A DNA stretch of 64,000 bases. Origin: Candidatus Dormiibacterota bacterium. Its GTDB lineage: Bacteria > Chloroflexota > Dormibacteria > Aeolococcales > Aeolococcaceae. The DNA lies in assembly GCA_003153505.1 (NCBI GenBank), contig PLZA01000065.1:29031-93030 (forward strand), given 5' to 3'. Numbering within the stretch: the first letter of the stretch is position 1; each line of letters opens with the position of its first letter. Under the pieces are notes generated by a model, which saw nothing but the letters and a program-made list of their open reading frames with translations, had not been told where the DNA came from and made no database searches. A program made the position numbers and the translations under genes. Below are positions 33,583-62,988 of this stretch, in pieces.

Positions 33583-34470
33583 CTACGGTCCCCCTGCGGA
33601 TCGTGAGAGGGGTTGCACGCCGTCGCCGCGGAACGTGGTCTCGATTCCACGAACATCCCCATCCTCATCGGCGAGGACGGTCACGTTGACATAGCCCAAA
33701 TGGGTCAGATCGTCGGCCAGCAGCACCGCTTGATCACCGCCGAGTTCGAGCAGGAGTGCCCCACCGGGTTTGAGGAAGCGTGGGCTGTCACGCAGGACTC
33801 GCCGGAGGACGCGCGTGCCGTCGTCGCCTCCGTCGTAGGAGAGTGTCGTCTCGAATGTGAAGGTGTCACGCTGCAGCAGCGGCAACTCCGGTGTCGGAAC
33901 ATACGGCACCACACCCACGACCACGTCGACGCGATGTTCGAGATCGCGGGGCAGCGGTGCGAAGAGATCGCCGTGATACACCTCGACGCCGTTGGCGGTA
34001 GCGCATGCAACGGCCGCTCGAGCCACGTCGGACGCCAGCACTCGGGCGCGGGGACGATGCGTGGCGAGGACCTTCGCGATCGCACCAGATCCGGTGCACA
34101 GGTCGATCGCACAGCCGTCGCGTGGCAGCCGCTCAACCGCTCTGCTTGCGACTGGTTCGCTGAGCCAGCGCGGGACGTAGACGTCCGGATCGACTCGCAC
34201 ATCGATGCCACAGAACGAGACACGGCCGGTGATCCAGGCGAGCGGCTCCCCGGTGAGACGGCGCCGCACGGCCGCGTCGAGCAGTCCTCCGTCGCCGCCG
34301 GCGAAGGTCAGCAGCTGCTGTGATTCCTCAGCCGCGGCGATGAAACCTTCGCGCGTCAGGAGCGCGCTCAGCGATGCGAGATCGCTCGCGATTGCGATGC
34401 CCTCAGCAGCAGCTGTTGGGAGGACTCGCGATCGCGATGATGCCGCCGATGACGACGAATGCGAGGACAA
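33583..34470 (-). CDS. HemK/PrmC-family SAM-dependent methyltransferase
   Basis: Substrate-binding (VSFCGIDVRVDPDVYVPR) and SAM-binding (IDLCTGSGAIA) motifs are present. Start is uncertain; the N-terminal ~30 aa may be spurious. Confidence 0.7.
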   Translation of the reverse strand: MSSHSSSSAASSRSRVLPTAAAEGIAIASDLASLSALLTREGFIAAAEESQQLLTFAGGDGGLLDAAVRRRLTGEPLAWITGRVSFCGIDVRVDPDVYVPRWLSEPVASRAVERLPRDGCAIDLCTGSGAIAKVLATHRPRARVLASDVARAAVACATANGVEVYHGDLFAPLPRDLEHRVDVVVGVVPYVPTPELPLLQRDTFTFETTLSYDGGDDGTRVLRRVLRDSPRFLKPGGALLLELGGDQAVLLADDLTHLGYVNVTVLADEDGDVRGIETTFRGDGVQPLSRSAGGP

Positions 34471-34641
34471 GCACCAGGAGTGCGGCGATCACCAGCTTCG
34501 TTCTCGTATCCATGCGTCCATGGAATGATGCACAAAGTCATGGCGCACCGGTGACCGGCGCGTGCGGGCTTGGAGCCGCATGCTGGCGAGCGGGCTGGCG
34601 TGACGCGGCGGTGCGATGTGGATCAAGCACCGCGGGGTCCA

Positions 34642-34890
34642 TTAGCCCGACGGACCCACCTCACGGGCTACCGGCCCGGAGCGCGAGCCCCGAGCATACT
34701 GCGGCGGTTCGACCTTTGTGGTGCGCGGTGCGCGGGCAACGCCGGCGCGATCGAGGACGTTCCGGCACCTCAGGCACTTGAACATGGGGGATGGCTGCGG
34801 CCAGCCGTCCCCGTGACGATCGTCACGACGAGGGGGAGTGAAGGTCAGCGGGACCACGCGATCGGCCCCGCACCGCCTGCAAAGGATCAA
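34642..34890 (-). CDS. possible small zinc-ribbon protein (two CxxC pairs)
   Basis: Two CxxC pairs (CRRC, then CLRC 31 aa later). Start is TTG; GC3 is about 70% and there is no clear SD. Confidence 0.25.
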   Translation of the reverse strand: MILCRRCGADRVVPLTFTPPRRDDRHGDGWPQPSPMFKCLRCRNVLDRAGVARAPRTTKVEPPQYARGSRSGPVAREVGPSG

Positions 34891-35620
34891 CGCCCAAAAA
34901 TTGTTCCATGCGGTCGTCCGGCCGTGTGTACGCTACGAGACTAAACGGGGACGGCGATTCCCGCCGGCGTCAGACTGAAGGCCAGCCCGTCCAGTCGCCC
35001 AGCCAGACCGGTGCCTCGGCAGGCGACGTGTCCCTCTACAACGCGGTGGGCTCGATCAACGCACTCCTGGACCTCGCCGGCTGGTTCCAGTAGGGGCGGA
35101 CCGGCGGGCTCCCGACGGATCTTGGCGCCGTCGCCCACCTCGGCCAGTGCCCGCAGCCGCTCGGTCCGATGTTGAACGCAGCTCGCCCGAATTCGGGCTG
35201 AGTTGAGCGCTCTGGGGAGTCCCCAGGCGCTCTTGTAGACGCGAACGACGGCGATGCCGCGAGTGGTTGAACTGGCCAGGTCCGCACGCGTACACTGCGA
35301 CCCTCATGGCGGGGAATCGTGGGCCGAGTTTCGCTCGCTACAACTCCGCAATCGCGGCGACGGCCGCGCTTGCGGCTGCGAAGGCTGATAAGGCCAAGAA
35401 GGAGCACGAGCAGTCTGCGGAGCTTCGCCCTCAGCCGGAGGCGTGGCGCACGCCCGAACACCTTCCTGAGCATCGCCAGGACGTCGCCTGAGGGTCCGGT
35501 ACCCGAACGCCGTGCGCGCACTCGTCGTCCCCGTTCTAGGCCCCCTCGGCTGACAGTATCGACCTCGGCACCATCCGCGGCGCTGGAGGCCATCAACTAT
35601 TGGTAGGAGGGAGGTCACCG

Positions 35621-35800
35621 ATGCCCGAAGACCACGACCCCAGCGCCTGGCAGCCGGTCGCCGTCCCCCAGCGCCGGATCGCTGACATGGATCTTCCGAC
35701 GTTCTTCATCCTGCTGTTCGTGACGATGACGCTCGCCGTCACCGCGGGCGTCTTCCTCTTCTACTACGTGCTGCTGCGGGCCATCGGAGTGAACGCCTGA
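35621..35800 (+). CDS. small membrane protein (59 aa)
   Basis: A strong SD (GGAGGGAGG) lies 6 nt upstream of the ATG. C-terminal hydrophobic helix FFILLFVTMTLAVTAGVFLFYYVLL. Confidence 0.4.
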   Translation: MPEDHDPSAWQPVAVPQRRIADMDLPTFFILLFVTMTLAVTAGVFLFYYVLLRAIGVNA

Positions 35801-36090
35801 TCGTGGCCAGGATCGCGACGCCTGAGCTTGAGTGGTGAGTAACCGACTCCGTTTGTCATCGTTCTACCTTCCGAGCTTGGGGAAATACGGAGACCCCCGG
35901 CGCGGTGCCAGGGGCCTCTTCAGGAAGGGAATGAGTTTCAGCCGCCATCTTGCCTGATCGCCCGTAAGGATCGGCGCGGGACCGAGTAGGATCGTCCGAT
36001 GGGGGCAGCGGTCGCCAGGAACGCGGGGAACGCATGCGTCGCAGCGCCAGCGGTGGTCGTTGCGCCCACGTCTGGCCGCGCGGATAGCGC

Positions 36091-36414
36091 TTACTGAACG
36101 GGCGTGCCTATCAGCTCGCGTGTTTCTCCCGCTGTGAGGTTGAAGAGCTTGTAGGCGCCGTCCTCCTGCGTCTGCCTAACCTCAACCGTGTCCTTATCGA
36201 TCATCTCCGAGACTATGCGCAACCAGGTTGGGCGGCCGTCCAGGCTTCCTCCATGCTTCTCGATTAGCTGCCAAAGGCGACGACGGCTTTCCCCAAACGG
36301 TTCGCGCGGGTGGTCCTTACGAAAGATCTCTCCCAGGTCACGGAAGAACGCGTTTCGGCCGCCGATGTCGTTGGCGTCATACCAGCGTTCGGACACGCTC
36401 GGTTCGAAGGTCAT
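36091..36414 (-). CDS. hypothetical protein (lower GC, no recognisable domain)
   Basis: An AAGAGG SD lies 5 nt upstream of the ATG. GC3 is about 60%, against ~85% in neighbouring genes. Confidence 0.5.
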   Translation of the reverse strand: MTFEPSVSERWYDANDIGGRNAFFRDLGEIFRKDHPREPFGESRRRLWQLIEKHGGSLDGRPTWLRIVSEMIDKDTVEVRQTQEDGAYKLFNLTAGETRELIGTPVQ

Positions 36415-36460
36415 GGAGCCCTCTTAACCCTACTGAGTTCTTTCACTAAGGTCGCGCAGC

Positions 36461-37297
36461 TTACTCAGACTGGCGACCGATCGTCCCACCTTCTGTCGGC
36501 TGATCCACACCACGCTGAGGGGGAGGATATTGCCGCACCGCGCACGCTGCGATGGTGAAGTTGCCTGTAACCATTGTGATGACGCCGCCATTCTCGCCAC
36601 TCTCGGTGAATGTGTAAGAGCCAGCAGCGCCAACGGTCATGGTGAACGGGTTGGACGGAATGTAGTCGGCTACGATGTCGGCCACGACGAGCTTGTATCC
36701 GACAGTCACGCCGCTGAATGTGGCGCTACCTGTGTCACCTGACGTTGAGCACGTCGTCGTCACGGTAACGACTGCGCACGCGCTAATGGTGAAGGGCAGC
36801 AATCCGCTGTTCGGGCCTTCAGGCGCTCCCGAGTAGGTGAATGAGTGGTCGCCAACGGTGTACGGACCACTGGTGAACGGGTTGCGGGTGACGTCCACGA
36901 CGTTACCGTCAAGCGTGATGGTGTCGGGCACGACGGGAGCGTCCTGTCCCGCTCCTGCTGTCCACGTTACGATCAAGCGTCCACCCTCAGTAGTGCCCGG
37001 AACGGCGCATGTGGTTTCCCAGCCTACGCCGGTCTGGCAGGGGCCATAACCGCACGGCCCTTCAGTCGGGCTGGGCGTAGGTGTGGAGGTCGGGGACGGC
37101 GTGGGCGTTGAGCAGTCTCCGTCGCAGCCCGTGGGCGGCGGCGAAGGCGTAGGCGTGTCGGTCGGTGACGGCGCTACTGTCGGAGCGACTGCAAGCGAGA
37201 GCGTTGGTCGCGCAGTAGGCGGCGTAACTGCCGTCGAGCCACAGGCTGCGAGGCCAACGGCGGCGATCGCAGTGCCGGCGATGGTCGCGAATTTCAC
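36461..37297 (-). CDS. putative lipoprotein with PT-rich linker and Cys-rich/beta-rich C-terminal domain
   Basis: A GGAGAGGG SD precedes the GTG start. The N-terminus is a lipoprotein signal with lipobox (VKFATIAGTAIAAVGLAACGS), followed by a TPTPSP linker. Confidence 0.6.
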   Translation of the reverse strand: MKFATIAGTAIAAVGLAACGSTAVTPPTARPTLSLAVAPTVAPSPTDTPTPSPPPTGCDGDCSTPTPSPTSTPTPSPTEGPCGYGPCQTGVGWETTCAVPGTTEGGRLIVTWTAGAGQDAPVVPDTITLDGNVVDVTRNPFTSGPYTVGDHSFTYSGAPEGPNSGLLPFTISACAVVTVTTTCSTSGDTGSATFSGVTVGYKLVVADIVADYIPSNPFTMTVGAAGSYTFTESGENGGVITMVTGNFTIAACAVRQYPPPQRGVDQPTEGGTIGRQSE

Positions 37298-37406
37298 GTC
37301 AGCTGCCCTCTCCACGAACCGACCACAGTCCTGACCGGCGCAGGGACCCTGGCCGCACTTCCTCTGGAACTCATGACGGGTGCCATACCGACCCAACGGG
37401 AACACG

Positions 37407-37667
37407 TCACGCACGGTTACATCCGCGCAAATGCGTCGAACGTGGCCCTCGCGTGTAGGCTCCGAGCCAGGGGTGATCGACGAGACTCCTGACGATCTGA
37501 CGGATACACTCGCGCGTCAGTTCAAGGGCCTCGCTGACGCTCGCCAGGTTCTCGCCGGCCTCATAGCGGTGGAGGATCTCAGCGTCTCGGCGCTCGATTA
37601 GGGGGAGCTGAGCGGTGGAGTGGCTTCCGGGCATGCCCATGCCTGCCACCCACCCCGTCGCGGGCAA
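37407..37667 (-). CDS. small sigma-70 region-4-like HTH protein
   Basis: RRDAEILHRYEAGENLASVSEALELTRECIRQI resembles a sigma-factor region 4 HTH. High GC3; start codon uncertain. Confidence 0.45.
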   Translation of the reverse strand: MPATGWVAGMGMPGSHSTAQLPLIERRDAEILHRYEAGENLASVSEALELTRECIRQIVRSLVDHPWLGAYTRGPRSTHLRGCNRA

Positions 37668-37944
37668 TCAAGCCGTACAGAAGCCGACACATCACGGCTT
37701 GAACGGACGATCGCAGCCGGGAGATTGGTGCCTCCCGACGCCATCGTCGACCTCGATCGCGACGTCCACTCGACGAGCCGCCGCGTGTCGGTCCTGAGCC
37801 TGTGGATGCGGCGCTGTAGCCGGGCCTCTTCGAGCTTTTGGGGCGACGGTGACGCCTCGCGATCGGGAACGCGGCAGGCCGCGAAGCTCGCTCCACGCCT
37901 TACGACCACACGCCGATGCTACGCGCGTGACTGTCAAACCACCG

Positions 37945-38029
37945 TACCGGGCCCGGGAATTGAACCCGGACGGGGGTTTCCCCCCAGCGGTTTTTAAGAC
38001 CGCCGCGTCTGCCATTTCGCCAGCCCGGC
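37945..38029 (-). tRNA. tRNA-Leu(UAA), type II with long variable arm
   Basis: Hand-folded cloverleaf:
- 7-bp acceptor stem GCCGGGC / GCCCGGT with a G1-U72 pair (as in E. coli tRNA-Leu(UAA)) and discriminator A.
- 3-bp D stem.
- Anticodon stem GCGGT/ACCGC around loop CTTAAAA.
- Variable arm GGGGG-GAAA-CCCCC.
- T arm CCGGG-TTCAATT-CCCGG.
CCA is not encoded. Confidence 0.85.
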
Positions 38030-38211
38030 ATTGGGGATTCTATGGGTCTGCAAGCCGCGCAGCCGGGTCAGCAACGTCCGGCTTCGGACTCCCGGGCGGC
38101 CGTATACTCCCGGAGCAGATGTTCGGTCGACGCCCCGACGCCACCTACCGGCGGAGCCAGAGTGCCACCGGGCTCCAGGTCCAACCCAGCGCGGTTGCGC
38201 GCGGCCTGGCG

Positions 38212-38667
38212 ATGCGGGTCCTCGATGCCGGTGAAGATCCTCACGAGCGCAAGCGCCTCGGTCAGCTGCTCGTCGATGAGCTCGATGCGCTCGCCGGCCT
38301 CCCCCACTGCGACCTGGTCGTGGCTGACCGAGCCCAGGTCCACTCGCACAACGGACAGCGGCTGCAGAGCAAGACGTACGGGTACTACCGCTGCACCTTT
38401 GTGGAGGGCACGGTGACGGCTGCTCGAATCCGCATCTACCACCGGACCGCGGTGCGTCAGCAGGTGATCACCACCAAGGTGTTCCTGAACACGCTGCTCC
38501 ACGAATGGGAGCACCACCATGACTTCGCCGGCCTCCGTCTCCCCCGTTCCCCGCACACCGCGGGGTTCTACGCGCGTTTGCGCGCGCTCGCGGGCGCGCT
38601 CGAGGTCGCGTTCGTGATGCCGCCTGAGCCCGGGGCCGACGGCGCGGCCGCAACGTCCGCAGCCTGA
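38212..38667 (+). CDS. hypothetical protein with HExxH motif (SprT-like zinc-metallopeptidase-like)
   Basis: LLHEWEHHHDF (HExxH) follows a YYRCTF..IRIY region. High GC3 on this strand; the antisense ORF 38068-38685 is rejected. Confidence 0.5.
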   Translation: MRVLDAGEDPHERKRLGQLLVDELDALAGLPHCDLVVADRAQVHSHNGQRLQSKTYGYYRCTFVEGTVTAARIRIYHRTAVRQQVITTKVFLNTLLHEWEHHHDFAGLRLPRSPHTAGFYARLRALAGALEVAFVMPPEPGADGAAATSAA

Positions 38668-38842
38668 GGCGCGCCTCCAGCCCACCCGATCGTGCCCTCG
38701 CGGCGGTGTCTGGTGATTGCCACGCCGGTCAGACGCGCGATCTCACCCTCGCGAAAGCATTCACATTTGCCCAGACAGCCGAGGCGGTGGCCCGGAACGT
38801 CGACGGGGTTGTTCGAGCTCGCCACCTTCGGCGGCCGCCGGC

Positions 38843-39253: not shown

Positions 39254-39324
<71 letters not shown>

Positions 39325-39346
39325 CACCCCGCGTATCCTCGTCGGC

Positions 39347-53536: not shown

Positions 53537-54244
53537 TCAGGGCCGGAGGCGCTCGCCGGCGTGGATCGGCACTGTCAGCCAGTTCTCTCGCGGGGGCAGC
53601 GGGCAGCTCCAGCGGGGGTCGTAGCTGCAGGACGGTTGATACGAGAAATTGAAGTCCAGGATGAGGCGGCCATCGCTGTCGACACCGAGATCGGCACTTT
53701 TCGCCGTGTCCAGGAGGTAGCGGCCGGCCCCATACGTCTCACCGCCGCTGGTCGCATCACGGAAGGAGAGAAAGAACCCGCCCGAGTAGTCGAGCAGCCA
53801 GAACATCGACAGGCGCAGCTGGGTACTGCCCAGCGAGCAATGCGCGGTGCCCGCGCGCTCGGCCGTGACGTGACCGGAGGTCGACCCGGGAAGCTCGAAC
53901 GTCGCGCCATCCGCTGCCTCGACATCGGCAACCGTGCGCAATCCCGGGTCGTAGTCGTAATACGCAGGTGCCGTCGCGTCGCCACGCTCTGCCTCCGGAA
54001 TCGGGCTCTGCGAATGGCCGCGATAGAGACGGTCGCGGACCTCGCGCCAGCGGGCCCAGGCAACGACCGGGTCCGGCTCCCCGCGAATTCCGGCGTAGAG
54101 CTCGCTGATCTGGCGCCGCCAGTCAGCCAGCGCCAGCCGGCCCGGGATCACTCCTGTATCGGCGCCGGAATCCTCAGTCAACCCGCGGAAATGTACCTCG
54201 CCCTCAGGGGCCGTCGCCGAACACCACGCCCCCACGGAGCTCAT
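53537..54244 (-). CDS. DUF1684-like protein
   Basis: The YGAGRYL and DFNFSYQPSCSY motifs are remembered from DUF1684. Start is uncertain. Confidence 0.6.
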   Translation of the reverse strand: MSSVGAWCSATAPEGEVHFRGLTEDSGADTGVIPGRLALADWRRQISELYAGIRGEPDPVVAWARWREVRDRLYRGHSQSPIPEAERGDATAPAYYDYDPGLRTVADVEAADGATFELPGSTSGHVTAERAGTAHCSLGSTQLRLSMFWLLDYSGGFFLSFRDATSGGETYGAGRYLLDTAKSADLGVDSDGRLILDFNFSYQPSCSYDPRWSCPLPPRENWLTVPIHAGERLRP

Positions 54245-54692
54245 CCATCCGGCGCATGCGAGCATGCGCGGTCTCGCCGAGCCGCGCCAGCACGCCGGCG
54301 ATCAACGCCTCGGTGAGCGCCACGGCTGACACCAGCGAGTCGAATGGCATCACCATGGTCTGGACACCCGTCGCCAGCACAAAGCGCGCGGAGGCTGCGG
54401 CCGGGGACAACCAGGGATCGGTCACCAGGACGACGGTGCTCCCCCGCCCCGCCGCGACCTTTGCGCTGTTGATCGTGTCGCTCTGGTAGCGGCGGTAGTC
54501 GAAGACCACCAGGATGTCGCGCCGGCCGAGATCCACCAGGCGGTCTGCAGGGTTGCTCCGCTCGGGATCGATCAGCTCGACGCCGGGTCGGATCAGGTGC
54601 AGCTGGCTCGCGAGGTAACGCGCGAGGAAGGTGCTCACCCGGCCGCCGAGCGTGAGGACGTGCCGGCGTGAGTCGGAGAGCAGGTCGATCAC
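54204..54692 (-). pseudogene. SIS-domain fragment of an RpiR/MurR-type regulator lacking the N-terminal HTH (probable 5' truncation)
   Basis: Only the SIS domain is present. An in-frame stop lies immediately upstream and there is no HTH. It could instead be a stand-alone SIS protein. Confidence 0.5.
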
Positions 54693-54701
54693 CGCGTCGA
54701 A

Positions 54702-55118
54702 ATGTGCTGCAAGTACGGGATTCCGCGGCTCCTCGAGCGGGGCGGCGGTTCGGTGATCAACGTTGCCTCGTTCGTGGCGCTGGTCGGCGCGGCGACGTCA
54801 CAGATCGGGTACACGGCGTCGAAGGGAGCGGTGCTGTCGATGAGTCGCGAGCTCGCTGTCCAGTTCGCTCGCCAGGGGGTTCGAGTCAATGCCCTGTGTC
54901 CGGGACCGGTCGAGGCTCCTCTGCTCATGCGCCTCTTTTCGGACAACCCCGCCGCGTATGAGCGGCGCCGCATCCACCTGCCGATGGGCCGCCTGGCCAC
55001 CGCACGCGAGATCGCCAACGCCGCGCTGTTTCTTGCGAGCGACGACTCGTCGTATGTGAACGGTGCGACCTTCCTCGTCGACGGTGGGCTCACCGCCGCC
55101 TACGTGACCCCGGAGTAG
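54702..55118 (+). pseudogene. C-terminal fragment of an SDR oxidoreductase (Rossmann half missing)
   Basis: Catalytic YTASKGAV, NALCPGPVEAP and the C-terminal region are present, but there is no TGxxxGxG N-terminus. The upstream DNA is antisense to the SIS gene. Confidence 0.6.
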
Positions 55119-55212
55119 GCCGGGGCTGTAACCCCTCCGCATACTCTCCGCATCATCAATGCACAGCGGTGGGCTGCGGCCGTCCTGATCGTCGGTGTCA
55201 TGATCCGAGCGC

Positions 55213-56313
55213 ATGGTTGTTGAGGCGGCGATCCGCTCCGCGGCGCTGCCCGACGGCCGAGCCGCCTGGCCAGTTCCGACGCCAGTCGCGATCGAAGGGC
55301 TCGGAACGGCGGTTCCACCCCATGACGTCGGCGGCGACGAGGTCCTTCGCCTGCTCACGCAACTCTGGCCGCGGCTCCAGCGTCGTGTGAGCCTCTTCGC
55401 CGACGAGCTTTCAGACACGCGCCGCTTCCTCGTCCGCCCGATCGAGGAGGCCCTGGTGCCGCTGAGCCCAGGGGCGCAGGCAGTTCGCTATGCGGCCGAT
55501 GCGACCGCGCTCGCGATCGCCGCAGCGGAGCGAGCGATCCTCGACGCTGGGACCGCGGTCGGTGACCTCGGGCTCATCGTCGTGTCGTCGTGCACCGGGT
55601 TCGTGCTCCCCGGGGTGGATGTGCAGCTGGTCAATCACCTCGGCCTCCGTCGCGATATCAGGCGTATGCCGTTTATGAACTTCGGCTGCGCAGGCGGCGC
55701 TGCGGCGCTGGCGTGGGCGTCTGATTGGGCTCGCTCGCATCCCGAGGAGTCGGCCCTGGTGGTTGCCGTCGAGGTGCCGTCGCTGACCTTCCGGCCGGCG
55801 GACACCTCGGCCGACAACCTCCTGAGCGTGCTCGTGTTCGGCGACGGTGCCGGGGCGGCGGTGCTTCGTGGGGGAACCGTCCTCGGACGCATCGGCATCG
55901 GCAGGACCGGTCATCATCTGGTGCGGTCGAGCACCGAAGCGCTCGGCTTCGAGCGGTCCGATGACGGGTTCCGCGTCGTTGTCTCCCGCCAGCTCCCCCG
56001 GCTGCTCGAGGCTCACCTTCCCGCACTGGTCGACGACTTCATCGGTCAAGCGTCCGATCTCGACGTGATCGCGCTCCATCCGGGGGGACAGGCGATCGTC
56101 GAAGCGGTCACGCGTTGCCTCGGACTCACAGACTCGCAGGTGGCGGCGACGCGCCGGGTGATGAGCAGCGTCGGCAACACCTCGTCTGCAGCAATCCTGT
56201 TCGTGCTCGAGGATCTGGCGACGCACCTCCCCTCCCCCGAGGGCCACGGCCTCGGCGCTGCCTTCGGCCCCGGGCTCATGGTCGAGCTCATCGAGCTGCT
56301 CTGGGCGTCATGA
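55213..56313 (+). CDS. type III polyketide synthase (chalcone/stilbene synthase superfamily)
   Basis: Catalytic Cys (VVSSCTGFVLPG), His/Asn regions and a C-terminal GFGPG-like motif (AAFGPGLMVE) are present. A GTG start at ~55285 is also possible. Confidence 0.85.
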   Translation: MVVEAAIRSAALPDGRAAWPVPTPVAIEGLGTAVPPHDVGGDEVLRLLTQLWPRLQRRVSLFADELSDTRRFLVRPIEEALVPLSPGAQAVRYAADATALAIAAAERAILDAGTAVGDLGLIVVSSCTGFVLPGVDVQLVNHLGLRRDIRRMPFMNFGCAGGAAALAWASDWARSHPEESALVVAVEVPSLTFRPADTSADNLLSVLVFGDGAGAAVLRGGTVLGRIGIGRTGHHLVRSSTEALGFERSDDGFRVVVSRQLPRLLEAHLPALVDDFIGQASDLDVIALHPGGQAIVEAVTRCLGLTDSQVAATRRVMSSVGNTSSAAILFVLEDLATHLPSPEGHGLGAAFGPGLMVELIELLWAS

Positions 56314-56927
56314 AGGGGCGGGCGCGAAGCGCCCTCGTGCTCGCGGCCGCGGCGCAGCGGCTCGTCGAGCTGCGGATCTCGAAGCGCAACCGCGTTGCAC
56401 TGGGCCGCGCCGAGCAGGCGTCCCCCTCGACCTACCCGGCCATGGTCGCCGTGCATGTCCTGCTCTTCGCGGTCAGCCTCTGGCCGCGCGCTGGCCGCAG
56501 GGTTTCGCGCCCGGTGGAAATCGTCGCCCTGGCGGGCCTCGGTGCGTCAGCCGGCCTGCGGCTGTGGGTCATTCGAACGCTGGGGACGACCTGGAACGTG
56601 ACGGCTCACGTGGCGCCTGAAGGGCACATCGAGACTGGGGGTCCCTATCGCTTCGTGCGCCATCCGAATTACGTCGCCGTGGCGCTGGAGTTCGCCTGCC
56701 TGCCCACGGCGGTCGGCGCCGTTCCAGAGGCGCTGGTGCTCTCGCTCGCCAACGCCGCGGTGCTCGCGCCGCGCATCCGAGCCGAGGAGCGCCTGCTCGA
56801 CGCGATCCCCGGATATCGCGAGGCGTTCCAGGACGTCCCCCGTTTCATCCCGCGCCGGATGTCCCGGAGCCGTCAGATCCCCGCCAGCAACAACCACTCG
56901 CGCGCCGTGACGTCGCGAAAGGTCTGA
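56310..56927 (+). CDS. isoprenylcysteine carboxyl methyltransferase (ICMT)-family membrane methyltransferase
   Basis: ICMT signature (YRFVRHPNYVAVALEF) on a TM protein. Its ATG overlaps the PKS stop (ATGA). Confidence 0.75.
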   Translation: MKGRARSALVLAAAAQRLVELRISKRNRVALGRAEQASPSTYPAMVAVHVLLFAVSLWPRAGRRVSRPVEIVALAGLGASAGLRLWVIRTLGTTWNVTAHVAPEGHIETGGPYRFVRHPNYVAVALEFACLPTAVGAVPEALVLSLANAAVLAPRIRAEERLLDAIPGYREAFQDVPRFIPRRMSRSRQIPASNNHSRAVTSRKV

Positions 56928-58051
56928 TATCCGCAGTTGATCGCGACGAGCTTGCCCAGTGCGCGCGGATCGCGTCCCGCTCGTTCGATGGCTCGCCGGC
57001 TGAGCCGCGGCGACTGTGCCAGGAAGAGCGCGAGTTGGGTGACGCGCCGCCGTTCGCGCACCACGCGTTCGTGGTCGATCGTGTAGCGAGTTGCGGCATC
57101 AGCGCGGGACGTCCGGCCGCCGAGGAAATCGACGAGGTGCTCCGCGACGCGTTCGGCAAGGAGCATCCCCACCGCGATGCCATCCCCCGTCGTCGGGTCG
57201 TCGTACCCGGATGCGTCACCGACAAGAAAGACGCGACCGTCCCCGGGCGTGCGCACCCGCTGATGGAACGACGCCGCGCCGAGCGGTCCTGACACCAGGT
57301 CGGAGTCGCGGAGGCTCGGGACCTCTCGACGCGCGACGCTCGCGTAGTCCCGCGCGCGCATCGGCTGGGCTCGGCCGGTGAGAATCGACACCAGCAGCAG
57401 GCCCGGTCCGACGGGAGCCTCGTACCACTCGTGACCGCGGGCGAGGGTCACCGTGACGGCGTCCCGTCCGCTTTCCTCGACGCGCCAATGGCCGGCGAGC
57501 CCGTAGCGAAGCCGCGCGTTTGATGGCGCCCTCAGCCCGGCCCAGGCACGGACCTGGGAGTGCAGACCGTCGGCACCGACGACGATGCGCGCCTGGATCG
57601 CCTCAGCCGTGGTGCTCACGCCGATCACGCTGCCCGCCCGATCGCGGATCAGCCCGGTGACTCGTTCGGCCTCCCGGACGGTGGCACGGGGCTCTCGGCG
57701 TACGGCGTCGACGAGCACGGCGTCGAAGCTGGTGCGGCGAACGCCAAGCCCGGCCGCCGGCCCGCCGTCCGGCGGGGCGGGGAACGGTACGTGGACCCTC
57801 GGCCCGGGCCCGGGCTGACGGTAGGTCACTCCCCGGATCGGCTGTGCACCGGTGGCCAGGACGGGGTCATACAGTCGCATTTTTCGGAGTACCGCCACAC
57901 CTGGGGGCATGACCCCTTCGCCGCATGCCTTGTCGCGCGGAAAGCGCGCGCGATCGACGAGCACCACGTCGTGACCGCTCCTCGCGATGAGGAGCGCGGT
58001 TGTTGCCCCGCTTGGGCCCGCGCCCACCACCACGACCTCGGTCTCGGTCAC
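56873..58051 (-). CDS. FAD-dependent monooxygenase/oxidoreductase (geranylgeranyl-reductase-like)
   Basis: Dinucleotide-binding motif VVVVGAGPSGATTALLIARSGHDVVLVDR is present. GTG start. The 3' end overlaps the convergent ICMT gene by 55 bp. Confidence 0.75.
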   Translation of the reverse strand: MTETEVVVVGAGPSGATTALLIARSGHDVVLVDRARFPRDKACGEGVMPPGVAVLRKMRLYDPVLATGAQPIRGVTYRQPGPGPRVHVPFPAPPDGGPAAGLGVRRTSFDAVLVDAVRREPRATVREAERVTGLIRDRAGSVIGVSTTAEAIQARIVVGADGLHSQVRAWAGLRAPSNARLRYGLAGHWRVEESGRDAVTVTLARGHEWYEAPVGPGLLLVSILTGRAQPMRARDYASVARREVPSLRDSDLVSGPLGAASFHQRVRTPGDGRVFLVGDASGYDDPTTGDGIAVGMLLAERVAEHLVDFLGGRTSRADAATRYTIDHERVVRERRRVTQLALFLAQSPRLSRRAIERAGRDPRALGKLVAINCGYQTFRDVTAREWLLLAGI

Positions 58052-58133
58052 GCAGGGACTGTCGCAGAACGACGTCGCAATGGGCGTTCGGCAGCGGACC
58101 GCATGCGACGGACCCCGGGTGGATGATGCATCC

Positions 58134-59366
58134 GTGAACTTCCTCTCGGGACTGCATGGCGCCGTCGCCCTGGCCCTGCTCCCAGCGCTGCTGTTCGCGG
58201 AGGAGGCAGGGGTCCCACTGCCGTTCGCCCCGGGGGAGCTGACCCTGCTGGTCGCGGGCCTGCTAATCGCCTCGGGTGGCCTCAATCCCTATGCCTTCAT
58301 CCCGCTCTCATTGGTCGCCTGCATTGCCGGGTCGCTGGTCGGATACAGCTGGGCCCGTGCCGTCGGCGACCGTGGTCTCAAGGGGCTCGCCCGCCGTCTT
58401 CGCCAGCAGCGCAACCTCGAGCGGGTCGAGGAGCGGCTTCGTGCCGCCGGATGGAGAGGCATCGCCATCAGCCGGCTGATTCCCGGCCTGCGCATCTACA
58501 CCACGCTGGTCGCCGGAGCCGTGCGAGCTCCGCGACGGTCATTCGTCCTCGCCATGGTCTCGTCGACGGTGGTCTGGGTCGGGGTCTACGTAGCTCTGGG
58601 AATCCTCATCGGCGTGCCGGTGGAGCACTTCCTCGATCAGCTTCAGAAGCTCGCCGTCCAGGGCGCCATCCTCATCGTGATGGGTGTCGGCTGCTACCTG
58701 GCGGTGCGCAAGACTCCGTCGTCATCCGGAGCCGGCCTCGTCCGGGTGCCCCGCTGGGTTCGAGTCGTCCTGGCCGCTCTGGTCGACATCGGCGTCGTCG
58801 CGAGCATCGTCACCGGGCTGCTCGCGCTCGGCCGCCTGCTCGGGGTCGGTTTCGGCAGCGGCTGGGTGGACGGGGTCGTCGTCCTCCTCGTCGTGGGAGC
58901 GTTCTACGTGATCGTCGCCAGGCGGAGCGCCGGGGCGACCGCCGGCGAGGTGTTGCTCCAGACGAGCTACATCAGCGGTCACGGCCTGCCGCTCAAACCC
59001 CGCGCCGCGCTCGAGGCGGTCCGCTCCCTGGTGACCAGGTCGGACGACGAGCTGACCGCCACCGGTGACCTCCTCCACGCCCTGGGCGATCCCGACCGGC
59101 TGCGGATCGTGACCCAGCTGCTGGACCGACCGCGGACGCTCGACGAGCTCGCCTCGCGCTCGAATCTCTCGGCCTTCGAGATCAGGCATCAGCTGGATCG
59201 ATTCCGGTCGAGCGGCGTCCTCGTGATCAGCGGACAGGAACCGGATGCGACCTACGCGATCCGCGCCGATCTGGGCCACGTGCTCGTACAGCTGCTGGCC
59301 ATCGTGGAGGCGACAACTGCCTCAACCGCGGCGCAGGAGGCCGCGCCCAAGCCGGCGCAGGTATAG
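58134..59366 (+). CDS. DedA (VTT-domain) membrane protein fused to a C-terminal ArsR/SmtB-type winged-HTH
   Basis: N-terminal DedA core (LPFAPGELTLLVAGLLIASG..ISRLIPGLRIYTTLVAG), extra TM helices, then an ArsR-type HTH. Start could be the ATG at 58080. Confidence 0.7.
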   Translation: MNFLSGLHGAVALALLPALLFAEEAGVPLPFAPGELTLLVAGLLIASGGLNPYAFIPLSLVACIAGSLVGYSWARAVGDRGLKGLARRLRQQRNLERVEERLRAAGWRGIAISRLIPGLRIYTTLVAGAVRAPRRSFVLAMVSSTVVWVGVYVALGILIGVPVEHFLDQLQKLAVQGAILIVMGVGCYLAVRKTPSSSGAGLVRVPRWVRVVLAALVDIGVVASIVTGLLALGRLLGVGFGSGWVDGVVVLLVVGAFYVIVARRSAGATAGEVLLQTSYISGHGLPLKPRAALEAVRSLVTRSDDELTATGDLLHALGDPDRLRIVTQLLDRPRTLDELASRSNLSAFEIRHQLDRFRSSGVLVISGQEPDATYAIRADLGHVLVQLLAIVEATTASTAAQEAAPKPAQV

Positions 59367-59375
59367 GCGAATCCT

Positions 59376-60395
59376 TCAGAAGGCCCCAACGATCAGGGCG
59401 CAGACCGCCGCCATGAGAGCGGTCGCCGGAATGGTGAGCACCCACGCGACGAGAATGTTTCGCGCTACGCCCCATCGCACCGCGCCGAGTCGTCGTGTCG
59501 CCCCCGCCCCCATCACCGATCCCGACACAACGTGGGTCGTGCTCACCGGCAACGCGAGTTGGGTCGCGCCCTGGATCACCACCGCAGCCATGGTCTGAGC
59601 GCAGAAGCCATCGACCGGCTCGAGGCGAATCACTCGCATGCCCAGGGTTCTGATGATTCGCCACCCGCCCGCGTACGTCCCGAATCCGATCGCTGTCGCC
59701 GCCAGGAGGACCACCCAGAGTGGGGGTGAGGGAAATTGCTTGCCACTTGCGGAGATGACGCCCGCGCTGACCAGGGCAAGCGTGATCACGCCCATCGTCT
59801 TCTGGGCGTCGTTGGCTCCGTGCGAGAACGACACGAAGGCACCAGAGGCGATCTGCGCCATGCGAAATCGCCGGTTCATGGGGCTCGGCTGCGCATGCCG
59901 GAAGACGTCGAGGGTGAGGCTGGTGAAGAGATATGCGAGCACGAGCCCGATGAGCGGTGACGCGACGAGCGCGATCACGACGGGGACTACCGAACCCCAC
60001 TTCACCGCGGCGAAGCCGTACGCGACCACCCCCATGCCGACAAGTGCACCGATCAGCGCGTGCGACGAACTGGACGGTAGGCCGAGGCGCCAGGTGATGA
60101 GGTTCCAGATGATCGCGCCCACAAGCGCGGCGATGATCATGCCGAGGGAGACACCGTGCTTCGGGGCCACCAGCCCGCCGATGGTGTTGGCAACGTGGGT
60201 ATGCAGGATCTCGATGGCGATCAGGGCACCGAGAAGATTGAAGGCGGCCGACATCGCGACCGCGGTTCGCGGGCCGAGCGCCCGCGTGCTGATCGACGTC
60301 GCGACAGCATTCGCGGTGTCGTGAAACCCGTTGGTGAAATCGAATCCGAGCGCGATCACCACGGTCGCGATCAGGAGCGCATCGATGCCCGTCAC
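59376..60395 (-). CDS. inorganic phosphate transporter (PiT family)
   Basis: The PiT signature GFDFTNGFHDTANAVATSI is present near the N-terminus and repeated in the C-terminal half. Confidence 0.9.
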   Translation of the reverse strand: MTGIDALLIATVVIALGFDFTNGFHDTANAVATSISTRALGPRTAVAMSAAFNLLGALIAIEILHTHVANTIGGLVAPKHGVSLGMIIAALVGAIIWNLITWRLGLPSSSSHALIGALVGMGVVAYGFAAVKWGSVVPVVIALVASPLIGLVLAYLFTSLTLDVFRHAQPSPMNRRFRMAQIASGAFVSFSHGANDAQKTMGVITLALVSAGVISASGKQFPSPPLWVVLLAATAIGFGTYAGGWRIIRTLGMRVIRLEPVDGFCAQTMAAVVIQGATQLALPVSTTHVVSGSVMGAGATRRLGAVRWGVARNILVAWVLTIPATALMAAVCALIVGAF

Positions 60396-61012
60396 GCGTT
60401 CTTGATGATGATGCCTTCGATAACGTTGGCCACGTCCTCGCAGCGATCCAGCGAGTCCTCGAGCAGCGTGTAGAAGTCCTTGAGCTTGATGATCTCGACG
60501 GCGTCGTACCCGCCGCGAAACAGCTCCCCGATTGCCCTCCGCGACTCGGTGTCGCCGACGTTCTCGATACGGTGGACTTCGATGCCGTGTTCACGCACCC
60601 CGGCCTTCGCCTCGAGCTTGGATACCGCAGCCTGAATCTGGCCGGCGGCAGCGACGATCAGTCCGGCCATCGATTTCGCCGCCGCCGAGATATCGCTGAT
60701 GCCATAGAGAATGATCGTCTCCGCGATTTCATCGATGTAGTCGAGCACGTCGTCGAGGCCCGAGCTGAGCGCGTAGATATCCTCACGATCGAAGGGTGTG
60801 ATGAACGTCCGGTGGAGGGTCTGGATGATCTCGTGGGTCACCTCATCGCCGGCGTGCTCGAGATCCTTGATCGCCGTCTGGTGCGCGGGCATCGACGCGA
60901 TATCGTCATCGAACGCATCCCGAAGCAGCTGCGATGCGGCGACGACGTTACCCGCCTGGCGATCGAACAGCTCGTAGAAACGCCGTTCCCGGCGCAGAAG
61001 ACTGATGGGCAT
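60392..61012 (-). CDS. DUF47/PhoU-like phosphate transport regulator
   Basis: 206 aa helical protein encoded immediately upstream of PiT with overlapping stop/start. MPISLLRRERRFYELFD is a DUF47-type N-terminus. Confidence 0.85.
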   Translation of the reverse strand: MPISLLRRERRFYELFDRQAGNVVAASQLLRDAFDDDIASMPAHQTAIKDLEHAGDEVTHEIIQTLHRTFITPFDREDIYALSSGLDDVLDYIDEIAETIILYGISDISAAAKSMAGLIVAAAGQIQAAVSKLEAKAGVREHGIEVHRIENVGDTESRRAIGELFRGGYDAVEIIKLKDFYTLLEDSLDRCEDVANVIEGIIIKNA

Positions 61013-61374
61013 GGACGCGCAGATCCTACTCGAAGGACCCTAAGCGCGATCGTCCGGAGGCGTCCATCAGCGATTCACCCCGCGAGTCGGGATGCGGTGC
61101 AAACAGGTCACGCCGTTCGGCGGCAGCGCGCGGTGCGACGCGCAGGTCACCCGCGCGCAACAAGACTCCGAACCCTTTCGTGGTCGAGCCCTGGGCGGGC
61201 GAATCTTTGCACTGGCCCTGCCCCGGGCCGATCGCCAGGTCAAATGCGGAGAGGGGTCCCGCGGGGGATTGACAGATCGCAGACGTCACAACGCCGCCGG
61301 GACCCGAGGCCGTCCCGGCCGGCCATCAGTGGCAACGTCGTCCCATCCTGAGCCTGCTCGTTCGCGCCGCGGTC

Positions 61375-62988
61375 GTGGTCATTCCCGCCGGCGTCGGGAT
61401 CACGGCCGGAGTGGTGATCAGCCGTGTGCTCCCGCGGCCAGATGGATTCGGCGCGGCCGCGCTGTCGTTTGCAGCCGTGAGCCTGGTGATGCTCGTGACG
61501 ATCATCGCGCTCGAGCGCGCCGGTCGTCGTCTCCTGCCGCTCGCCGCACTGCTCAACCTGTCGTTGCTCTTTCCGGATCGAGCGCCCAAGCGATTCGCGG
61601 TCGCTCGCCGGGTCGGGAAGCCACGCGACCTGCAGCGCCGGCTCCAGGAGGCGCGCGACAAAGGAGTGACGGGTGGCGAGGTGGCGCACATGCAGACGGT
61701 GCTGGAACTCGTTGCGGCGCTGAGCGTGCACGACCGCCAGACGCGTGGACACTCCGAGCGAGTGCGCGTGTTTGCGGACCTCATCGCTGACGAGATGAAG
61801 CTCGCCCCCGGTGATCGCGCCCGTCTCCGCTGGGCCTCCCTGCTCCACGACATCGGCAAATTGGTGGTCCCTGCCGAGATTCTGTCGAAGCCGGCGAAGC
61901 TCAGCCACGCCGAGATGGAGAACGTCCGCCGCCATCCCGATGAAGGCGCTCGGCTCATCGGGCCCCTGAGCGCATGGCTCGGCGAATGGGCAGGCGCGGT
62001 GCCCCACCACCACGAACGCTTCGATGGTCGCGGCTATCCGCGCGGTCTCGCAGGCGACCAGATCTCGCTTGCCGGTCGCATCGTCGCGGTCGCCGACTCG
62101 TACGAGGTCATGACTGCGATGCGCCCATATCGCAAGCCGGTCAGCGTGTCCGCAGCGCGGCAGGAGCTGGTCGAGTGTTCAGGAGCGCAGTTCGATCCCA
62201 TCGTGGTTCGCGCGTTTCTCAACATCTCCATGGGCCGCCTGTGGCGCGTCGTCGGTCTTGGTTCGTGGATCGCGCAACTGCCGCTGATCGGCTGGGTCGA
62301 TCGCCTGGGATGGAACTGGGGGGCTGCGATCATGTCGGGCACGACTGCGCTCGGCCTGACAGCGCCGGGTCTGATCCCGAGCGCCCCGCCGTCCGCAAGC
62401 CCGACCTTCGGCATTTCGGTCGTCTCGAGCGGCGGTACAACTGCGCGGACAAACCCTGGATTGGGTGCCGGCGCACCGGATGGCACCACGGGGAGTGCAC
62501 CGTCAGGGCAGACCACGACGACGCGTCCCGCGGGGGGAACCACGGGACAGTCCGGAGGCAGTCCGGGTGGCGGTGGTGCGCCCGCCTCAACCCCGCCGTC
62601 ACCTGCCCCGTCACTGTCGCCTCCGACGCCGGGTTCCACCCCCATAACGCCGACGCCGTCCCCGACTCCACCGCCAACAGCGACGCCCACGCCGCCTCCC
62701 GATCTTCCACCGGTCGTGACCGTCAACCCGGGCGGCCTCGTCGCGCTCGGTCTCTACAGGAACGGCTCGGGAGGCTTTACGGACGCCGACTTCGCCGGCC
62801 ACACGTTCACCGCGACGGTGAACTACGGCGACGGGAGCCCGACGGTGCCGCTCGCGTTGAGTGGGGCGACCTTCGTCCTGGCGCATAACTACAGCACCAT
62901 CCTCGCGACATACACCGTGACCGTCACGGTCACCGACAACGACGGTGTGTCAGGTACCGGGACGACCACTGTGACCGTGATCTTCTAG
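61375..62988 (+). CDS. membrane-anchored HD-GYP phosphohydrolase with C-terminal PT-rich linker and PKD-like domain
   Basis: Two N-terminal TM helices, an HD motif (LLHDIGK) and a GYP motif (HHERFDGRGYPRG). Further hydrophobic segments precede a Pro/Thr/Ser linker and a PKD signature. Confidence 0.8.
   Translation: MVIPAGVGITAGVVISRVLPRPDGFGAAALSFAAVSLVMLVTIIALERAGRRLLPLAALLNLSLLFPDRAPKRFAVARRVGKPRDLQRRLQEARDKGVTGGEVAHMQTVLELVAALSVHDRQTRGHSERVRVFADLIADEMKLAPGDRARLRWASLLHDIGKLVVPAEILSKPAKLSHAEMENVRRHPDEGARLIGPLSAWLGEWAGAVPHHHERFDGRGYPRGLAGDQISLAGRIVAVADSYEVMTAMRPYRKPVSVSAARQELVECSGAQFDPIVVRAFLNISMGRLWRVVGLGSWIAQLPLIGWVDRLGWNWGAAIMSGTTALGLTAPGLIPSAPPSASPTFGISVVSSGGTTARTNPGLGAGAPDGTTGSAPSGQTTTTRPAGGTTGQSGGSPGGGGAPASTPPSPAPSLSPPTPGSTPITPTPSPTPPPTATPTPPPDLPPVVTVNPGGLVALGLYRNGSGGFTDADFAGHTFTATVNYGDGSPTVPLALSGATFVLAHNYSTILATYTVTVTVTDNDGVSGTGTTTVTVIF

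Follow-up and report, generated by a model that had tools for sequence, protein, structure and literature searches.

Which product is made by a type III PKS, an ICMT-family methyltransferase and an FAD-dependent oxidoreductase whose genes lie together in a Dormibacterota genome? Dormibacterota are an uncultured soil phylum, known to subsist on trace gases where soils are poor, and we know of no cultured representative and of no description of their envelope lipids or quinones. The window analysed here is a stretch of 64,000 nucleotides from a Candidatus Dormiibacterota bacterium, in which gene coordinates and Pfam matches place the three genes within 55213-58051 (Table 1). By homology to srsABC and pkqABC, the trio is probably a membrane phenolic-lipid cassette, and it is predicted to make, most likely, an alkylresorcinol with a long chain, O-methylated and hydroxylated to give a quinol or quinone.

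Table 1. Features of the three-gene locus (positions in the window)
Feature	Position	Strand	Basis
Type III PKS, 366 aa	55213..56313	+	Pfam, NCBIfam, alignments to solved structures
ICMT-family (SrsB/BpsB-like) integral-membrane SAM-dependent methyltransferase, 205 aa	56310..56927	+	Pfam ICMT
ATGA, overlap of PKS stop and methyltransferase start	56310..56313	+	the sequence itself
SrsC/PkqC/HidB-type FAD-dependent oxidoreductase, 392 aa, GTG start	56873..58051	-	Pfam FAD_binding_3
55-nt overlap between the convergent methyltransferase and flavoprotein genes at their 3' ends	56873..56927	.	gene coordinates

The layout is as the first-pass annotation had described it, with all three genes in place, the PKS and methyltransferase joined by ATGA and the FAD gene convergent beside them. 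Read directly in the sequence, the methyltransferase ATG (56310-56312) overlaps the PKS stop codon TGA (56311-56313), which suggests translational coupling. The three genes do not share the single direction of one operon; the FAD gene is convergent and lies outside the PKS-methyltransferase transcription unit. A scan of 54500-59600 found no promoter or terminator, and an Rfam search of the window returned two tRNAs only, both away from the trio. Two neighbours were considered as further members of the cluster and rejected. The very conserved SDR ORF upstream (54702-55118) belongs to a puu-like operon in contig L087, which is 98.5% identical; there the SDR is the last gene after a permease, Peptidase_C26, Gln-synt_C and Aldedh, and in the window the ORF is cut at a synteny breakpoint. 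A DedA-ArsR fusion, the candidate regulator, adjoins the trio only in the clade with PKSs 72-83% identical to that of the window.

Linkage was surveyed by tblastn on 80 loci from species-representative genomes; in 71 of these loci there is a PKS with 45-83% identity to the window PKS. An ICMT gene lies directly downstream of the PKS in all but one of these related loci (70/71), and a convergent FAD gene is present in 65/71, although three of the loci without it stop too early to be judged. Wherever a Dormibacterota-type locus carries the FAD gene, it is convergent. The coordinates also show the 4-nt overlap or near-abutment of PKS and ICMT genes in related loci, and convergent genes for methyltransferase and flavoprotein with overlapping 3' ends recur in nearly all of them and in the Chloroflexota locus L084. 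The genes flanking the trio vary between sub-clades, and in Chloroflexota relatives the linkage is kept with a rearranged gene order. Linkage that persists despite differing flanks and rearranged order is typical of functional coupling, and the grouping of the three genes is not chance; the lack of conserved co-occurrence that would have spoken against the first-pass reading was not seen. ICMT and FAD homologues are absent from the flanks of actinobacterial loci L073-L082, whose PKSs are 27-37% identical to that of the window, and these loci are therefore uninformative on the trio.

As a stand-in for Streptomyces griseus srsABC, chosen by gene order and literature description, we used operon L083 of Streptomyces sp. 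CP046905.1. All three window proteins are homologous to its products, in line with the resemblance to srsABC that had been claimed: identity is 33% for the PKS (2e-44), 41% for the methyltransferase (2e-26, with RHPNY conserved) and 35% over 297 aa for the flavoprotein (1e-32).

The PKS is matched in NCBIfam as well as by the Pfam domains Chal_sti_synt_N (9.9e-22) and Chal_sti_synt_C (2.7e-16). Its catalytic triad consists of Cys159 (GCAGG), His289 (HPGG) and Asn322 (GNTSS), with Phe209 at the gatekeeper position, and none of these four residues varies across alignment A1. Cys159 falls in the column of PKS11 Cys138, marked by the C138S mutant (4jat). JGI places the PKS orthologues in an alkylresorcinol/alkylpyrone synthase group. 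A residue that bears on ring type is Phe246, which aligns with PKS11 Trp230 (equivalent to ArsB Trp281) and THNS Tyr224; the L083 enzyme has Trp here by pairwise alignment, and a sister clade with 50-58% identity to the window PKS has Tyr (alignment A1). A Trp at this site is reported to be conserved in the resorcinol-forming ArsB, SrsA, FtpA, PKS10 and PKS11, whereas MMAR_2470, with Tyr, makes triketide pyrones only (PMC5916927). The resorcinol-associated Trp is thus absent from the window PKS.

This residue is one reason to consider that the PKS stops at the tri- or tetraketide stage, as in the bpsAB type, and yields a long-chain alkylpyrone that the ICMT-type enzyme O-methylates, with the flavoprotein acting elsewhere or on the pyrone or its alkyl chain. 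The opposite strand of the FAD gene fits such a product, as do the close relatives that carry a PKS-ICMT pair and no FAD gene (L089 and L090, also L069 and L072). However, the Trp-bearing PKS11 also forms pyrones in vitro, so the residue at position 246 is not decisive. Moreover, the FAD gene is kept beside the pair in most of the related loci and in the rearranged Chloroflexota loci, and it shares homology with the third gene of the Streptomyces operon, which modifies the ring. We regard the alkylpyrone as fairly unlikely.

The methyltransferase matches Pfam ICMT (7.5e-19) and also PEMT, contains the motif GPYRFVRHPNY and has three hydrophobic segments in a simple Kyte-Doolittle window. Since it is an integral-membrane enzyme, its substrate is presumably lipophilic.

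The flavoprotein matches FAD_binding_3 (2.8e-26) and carries the motifs GAGPSG, FPRDKACGEGVMP, ADGLHS and GDASGYDDPTTGDG. Database names for it are ambiguous, ranging over hydroxylase, MenJ-like reductase and dehydrogenase, and the label 'monooxygenase' is a putative one, given by homology to SrsC-type proteins only. Instead of hydroxylating the ring of the phenolic lipid, the enzyme might act on this lipid as a reductase like MenJ or geranylgeranyl reductase, or as a flavin-dependent halogenase. In NCBIfam it scores best against the geranylgeranyl reductase family and MenJ, many orthologues are labelled 'menaquinone-9 beta-reductase' by JGI, and its K-x-C-G-E-G motif resembles the reductase Cys motif. 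But all scores against curated families fall far below the cut-offs (TIGR02032, 126.2 bits against 158.8; MenJ, 81.9 against 700); the Streptomyces L083 flavoprotein meets the same NCBIfam profile, likewise below threshold, and shares DKACGEG(V/L)MP. As for a halogenase, the enzyme that chlorinates hierridin C is not known (PMC8086630), yet the halogenase motif WxWxIP is absent from the flavoprotein, where residues 207-213 read HEWYEAP, and the Pfam Trp_halogenase match is limited to residues 6-79 instead of the full-length profile. Both variants also run against the homology to the third gene of the Streptomyces srs type, on whose product quinone formation depends (PMC9927152, PMC6669644), and we judge them improbable.

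The first-pass annotation had proposed to inspect the active-site residues and to place the PKS in a phylogeny. Neither Phe246 nor the tree favours an SrsA-type alkylresorcinol synthase. In a neighbour-joining tree (100 bootstraps) with PKS11, the Streptomyces enzymes and THNS for comparison, the window PKS lies in a separate Dormibacterota and Chloroflexota clade with 100% support, outside the Trp-bearing clade of PKS11 and the Streptomyces enzymes (61%), with deeper nodes unresolved. It falls outside the SrsA/PKS10/PKS11 clade, nor is there a robust join to THNS/RppA. Clustering with chalcone- or RppA-type enzymes had been named as evidence against the lipid reading; no robust clustering of this kind appeared. 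Of the 100 bootstrap trees, 27 place the window PKS nearer THNS, 10 place it nearer PKS11 and 63 give a tie.

THNS (PDB 1u0m) is nevertheless the best-scoring solved structure, at 150 bits against 137 for PKS11 and 131 for PKS18. In THNS structure numbering, its columns Cys106, Cys168, Cys171 and Tyr224 read Cys127, Pro189, Thr192 and Phe246 in the window PKS. Malonyl priming in RppA needs an aromatic residue at position 224. A malonyl-CoA-primed PKS of RppA/THNS or phloroglucinol type, whose small aromatic polyketide would be methylated and oxidised with no lipid formed, is therefore suggested by the score, the retained Cys, the aromatic residue and the bootstrap count, but it is very improbable given the absence of Cys168/Cys171 from the full THNS set, the separate clade, the JGI orthologue group and the partner genes, which encode an ICMT enzyme of the integral-membrane kind and a flavoprotein resembling SrsC instead of the P450 or cupin found with rppA.

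Returning to the phenolic-lipid cassette, we infer substrate, ring type, order of steps and physiological role from the homologous pathways. The PKS would extend a long-chain fatty acyl thioester starter with malonyl units and close the chain into the ring of an alkylresorcylic acid or an alkylresorcinol. This ring would then be O-methylated by the ICMT-type methyltransferase, which sits in the membrane and is apparently coupled to the PKS in translation, and hydroxylated by the SrsC-type flavoprotein encoded on the opposite strand, giving a product oxidisable to a methoxy-alkyl-benzoquinone/quinol. The lipid may serve in the envelope or as an auxiliary electron carrier. The methylated alkylresorcinol or alkylquinone class predicted by the first-pass annotation is plausible, and plausible at most, because the flavoprotein gene is convergent and its 'monooxygenase' activity is assigned by homology only.

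Several features of the locus count against the phenolic-lipid reading: the 33% identity of the PKS to the Streptomyces enzyme, its own clade, Phe246 and the convergent FAD gene.

The PKS clade of Dormibacterota and Chloroflexota (Phe/Tyr246, Cys127, Pro189) might build another ring or chain length than SrsA-type enzymes and, with the linked methyltransferase and flavoprotein, give an undescribed polyketide quinone that works as a regular membrane electron carrier and not as a mere 'secondary' lipid; we consider this unlikely.

The survey suggests that much of Dormibacterota can make methylated phenolic lipids, with the PKS in 71 species-representative genomes and all three genes in 65, and these lipids may be quinones. 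Actinobacterial quinones of this kind support respiration under scarce oxygen or dormancy. The methyltransferase and flavoprotein pair accompanies PKSs whose residue at the presumed 'resorcinol switch' is Trp in some, Phe in others and Tyr in others again, and this variation offers a cheap mutational test of the Trp rule. Otherwise, the locus extends a well-described cassette to another phylum and is a largely ordinary find.

Earlier work has reported such cassettes from Streptomyces, from Mycobacterium (polyketide quinones), from cyanobacteria (hierridins) and from Planctomycetota. In srsABC an alkylresorcinol is converted to its methyl ether and then to a quinone, pkqABC makes polyketide quinones, and both Planctomycetota and cyanobacteria conserve the trio (PMC9927152, PMC5916927, PMC10896814, PMC8086630, PMC6669644). 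The Streptomyces operon L083 resembles the window in having the ICMT-type methyltransferase gene directly after the PKS and in the flavoprotein motifs DKACGEG(L/V)MP, ADGLHS and GDAAGY. In L083, however, a UbiA gene on the minus strand precedes PKS, ICMT and FAD_binding_3 genes on the plus strand, so the flavoprotein gene is the third of the same operon, whereas the window has it convergent and has no UbiA prenyltransferase neighbour. The PKSs also belong to different clades, with Trp in place of Phe246, and the L083 flavoprotein is shorter (341 aa against 392 aa), that of the window having ~50 extra C-terminal residues.

The product of pkqABC in Mycobacterium smegmatis (the pks10 operon) is an alternative membrane electron carrier, a possible role in the window too. 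The mycobacterial PKS10 and PKS11 differ in having Trp230, and the window PKS falls outside their clade. A search with PKS11, rebuilt from a PDB alignment, recovered only orthologues of slow-growing mycobacteria, which are >81% identical to it and have other genes around them.

Likened by description, the cyanobacterial hidABC (hierridins) and the planctomycetal mtr-fdo-t3pks operon combine the same trio of enzyme types and are widely conserved. Unlike in the window, their order is methyltransferase, oxidoreductase, PKS, all co-directional, and HidC lies in another PKS clade, near ArsB/ArsC. Planctomycetal PKSs make alkylresorcinols (PMC10896814, PMC8086630), whereas the planctomycetal methyltransferase and FAD enzymes gave no clear activity on testing (PMC10896814). 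The Dormibacterota pair itself, apart from its flavoprotein, has a further counterpart, again by description. In Bacillus subtilis bpsAB, a type III PKS is directly coupled to an ICMT-family membrane methyltransferase, but there is no flavoprotein gene and the product in vivo is a pyrone.

The type III polyketide synthase (PKS) and methyltransferase genes are joined by an ATGA string in which the methyltransferase ATG overlaps the PKS stop codon, and the gene for an FAD_binding_3 flavoprotein converges on them. Sequence and Pfam matches agree here with the first-pass annotation, which had placed three such genes, coupled and oriented in this way, at 55213-58051. The 3′ ends of the convergent genes overlap by 55 nt (56873-56927), so both C-termini are encoded on the same DNA, and an overlap of ~40-60 nt recurs in nearly every locus compared (L003-L066 and the Chloroflexota locus L084). 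A terminator-like site was looked for at the overlap and none was found. By a simple Kyte-Doolittle hydropathy window, the methyltransferase has three hydrophobic segments.

Features of the window around the three-gene cassette and in the low-G+C stretch
Feature	Position	Strand	Remarks
Type III polyketide synthase, 366 aa	55213..56313	+	Pfam Chal_sti_synt_N + Chal_sti_synt_C
ICMT/PEMT-family methyltransferase, 205 aa	56310..56927	+	Pfam ICMT 7.5e-19
FAD_binding_3 protein, 392 aa, GTG start	56873..58051	-	Pfam
DedA/VTT membrane domain + C-terminal ArsR-type HTH fusion	58134-59366	+	Seven hydrophobic segments
tRNA-Leu(taa)	37944-38029	-	Inside low-G+C stretch
tRNA-Cys(gca)	39254-39325	+	Just past low-G+C stretch

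The PKS has its nearest relatives (72-98% identical) in soil and peat metagenomes and in MAGs that bear the label Candidatus Dormibacterota or Dormibacteria; the window itself probably derives from a Dormibacterota genome. Among 80 loci from a scan of species-representative genomes, searched by tblastn with the window proteins as queries, 71 carry a PKS 45-83% identical to that of the window. In 70 of these 71 the ICMT gene is the next gene downstream and adjoins or overlaps the PKS stop. The FAD gene is present in 65, in every case encoded on the opposite strand and with an overlap at the ICMT 3′ end; it is missing from L033, L069 and L072, and three further loci without it end too soon to tell. 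Flanking genes are not alike between the clade with 72-83% identical PKSs and that with 50-58%, and therefore the trio itself is the unit kept together. Outside Dormibacterota, the nearest relatives are proteins of Chloroflexota MAGs, where one locus (L084) has a layout identical to the window, another (L085) runs FAD, PKS, then a convergent ICMT gene, and a third (L086) combines a UbiE-type methyltransferase, an FAD/halogenase-like gene and a PKS. More distant relatives have PKS and FAD (L088) or PKS and ICMT only (L089, L090). That linkage is kept despite shuffled gene order indicates that the trio genes are functionally coupled; their co-occurrence is strongly conserved.

Some cassettes look degraded, through either decay or long-read indel errors: the FAD gene of L001/L034 (7670-8647) matches residues 68-392 only, its GxGxxG N-terminus gone, and all three genes of L071 match in pieces only. 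Nine loci 45-79% identical to the Dormibacterota cassette (L027, L029, L030, L033, L038, L041, L049, L069 and L072) carry non-Dormibacterota labels (Saccharimonadales, Acidiferrales, Angelobacter, Binatia, Micrarchaeia archaeon, Verrucomicrobiia or Alphaproteobacteria), a sign of wrong labels or MAG contamination rather than of horizontal transfer.

Two neighbours were rejected as cassette members. All that the ORF at 54702-55118 retains of an SDR gene is the C-terminal half (138 codons); the N-terminal half was not found anywhere in the 64-kb window. A soil contig (L087) matches window 54703-62312 at 98.5% DNA identity, with homology stopping abruptly at 54703; there the SDR is intact and closes a puu-like operon that precedes the PKS. 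Where L087 has this operon, the window has an opposite-strand SIS-domain gene, and the sharp synteny breakpoint at 54702/54703, inside the SDR gene (region 54204-55118), reflects a rearrangement of recent date or else an assembly join. Amino-acid identity of the fragment is high (93-98%) although its third codon positions are saturated, which fits recent truncation or such a join. Further rearrangements occur at this spot in Dormibacterota loci L001, L019, L034 and L071, and the upstream SDR gene of L003 is frameshifted. The DedA-ArsR gene, which diverges from the FAD gene with 82 nt between them, accompanies the trio in the closer (72-83% PKS) clade only, where it is 79-95% identical and more conserved than the trio; it may encode a membrane-anchored regulator. 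Elsewhere in the window (G+C 63-71%), the stretch 33600-38700 has lower G+C (0.64-0.67) and ORFs without Pfam match, and could represent a small island or else DNA that codes poorly.

In the PKS, alignment identifies Cys159 as the catalytic nucleophile (Cys in PKS11, Ser in its C138S mutant, 4jat), with the invariant His289 and Asn322 completing the triad. Phe246 aligns with PKS11 Trp230, THNS Tyr224 and a PKS18 Leu; among 141 full-length sequences this column holds W 62, F 50 and Y 19 times. This Trp (ArsB Trp281) is reported to be common to the resorcinol-forming enzymes ArsB, SrsA, FtpA, PKS10 and PKS11 (PMC5916927). In a neighbour-joining tree (100 bootstraps), Dormibacterota PKSs form a single clade (100%) with Chloroflexota sequences as sister (100%), separate both from the Trp-bearing clade of PKS11 and Streptomyces srs-type enzymes (61%) and from the THNS group, deeper nodes being unresolved. 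The window PKS belongs to an uncharacterised clade. Given this separate clade, Phe246 and the missing THNS cysteines (only the first of three is present, as Cys127; the others are Pro189 and Thr192), the phylogeny and active-site comparison proposed earlier leave an alkylresorcinol synthase neither refuted nor confirmed. The 150 nearest families were taken from an HMMER search of 1.84 billion cluster representatives; the top match, P0241 (4818 aa, 12 separate type III PKS stretches, 760 bits, 28% identity), could be a giant type III PKS built in tandem or a fusion made by gene calling.

We consider a phenolic-lipid pathway reasonably probable and the most likely mechanism. The PKS would prime with a fatty acyl thioester, add malonyl-CoA and cyclise the chain to a phenolic lipid, which the membrane methyltransferase, produced in a constant ratio via the ATGA coupling, would O-methylate at the membrane; the flavoprotein would then hydroxylate the ring to a quinol/quinone. 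An alkylpyrone product seems unlikely. Tyr at the ArsB Trp281 position goes with triketide pyrones in MMAR_2470 (PMC5916927), but the same methyltransferase/flavoprotein pair stands beside PKSs with W (L083, a Streptomyces srs-type operon), Y (L084) and F (window, L085), and nearly all loci keep the putative ring hydroxylase. Judging from these partner genes, we think a phenolic (resorcinol) ring more likely than a pyrone. It is decidedly unlikely that the flavoprotein is a reductase or halogenase. Its fold class is clear, its chemistry less so: it reaches no curated family cut-off, the geranylgeranyl reductase family being its top NCBIfam profile, as for the L083 flavoprotein (~120-126 bits vs cut-off 158.8), and it lacks the WxWxIP halogenase motif (residues 207-213 are HEWYEAP). 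The ring-hydroxylase role is putative, assigned because the protein is homologous to the srs-type third gene. A small malonyl-primed aromatic is highly improbable as product. The solved structure with the highest score is THNS/RppA (150 bits), ahead of the M. marinum-like 7cb3 (138), PKS11 (137) and PKS18 (131), with plant chalcone synthases at ≤108 bits.

The likeness to srsABC noted in the first-pass annotation extends to all three proteins. The Streptomyces operon L083 (CP046905.1) has a divergent UbiA gene, then PKS, ICMT and FAD_binding_3 genes, whose products are 33% (2e-44), 41% (2e-26) and 35% (1e-32) identical to those of the window. The flavoproteins also have DKACGEG(V/L)MP, ADGLHS and GDA(A/S)GY in common. 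These matches, with the common flavoprotein motifs and profile, make the cassette a homologue of the srs type and not just an analogue. In Streptomyces, srsABC encodes a PKS, an ICMT-type methyltransferase and a monooxygenase, and the alkylresorcinol is first methylated and, on hydroxylation, becomes a quinone (PMC6669644, PMC9927152). The pkqABC/pks10 operon of M. smegmatis makes polyketide quinones that are alternative electron carriers (PMC5916927, PMC9927152), cyanobacterial hidABC has the same enzyme trio (PMC8086630), and Planctomycetota have a three-gene operon with 58 of 96 type III PKS genes, the PKSs of which produce alkylresorcinols (PMC10896814). Cassettes of this type were known before from at least four phyla; the literature searched does not describe one in Dormibacterota. 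What is new here is the phylum, the fixed convergent layout and a separate PKS clade that has Phe/Tyr at the presumed switch residue.
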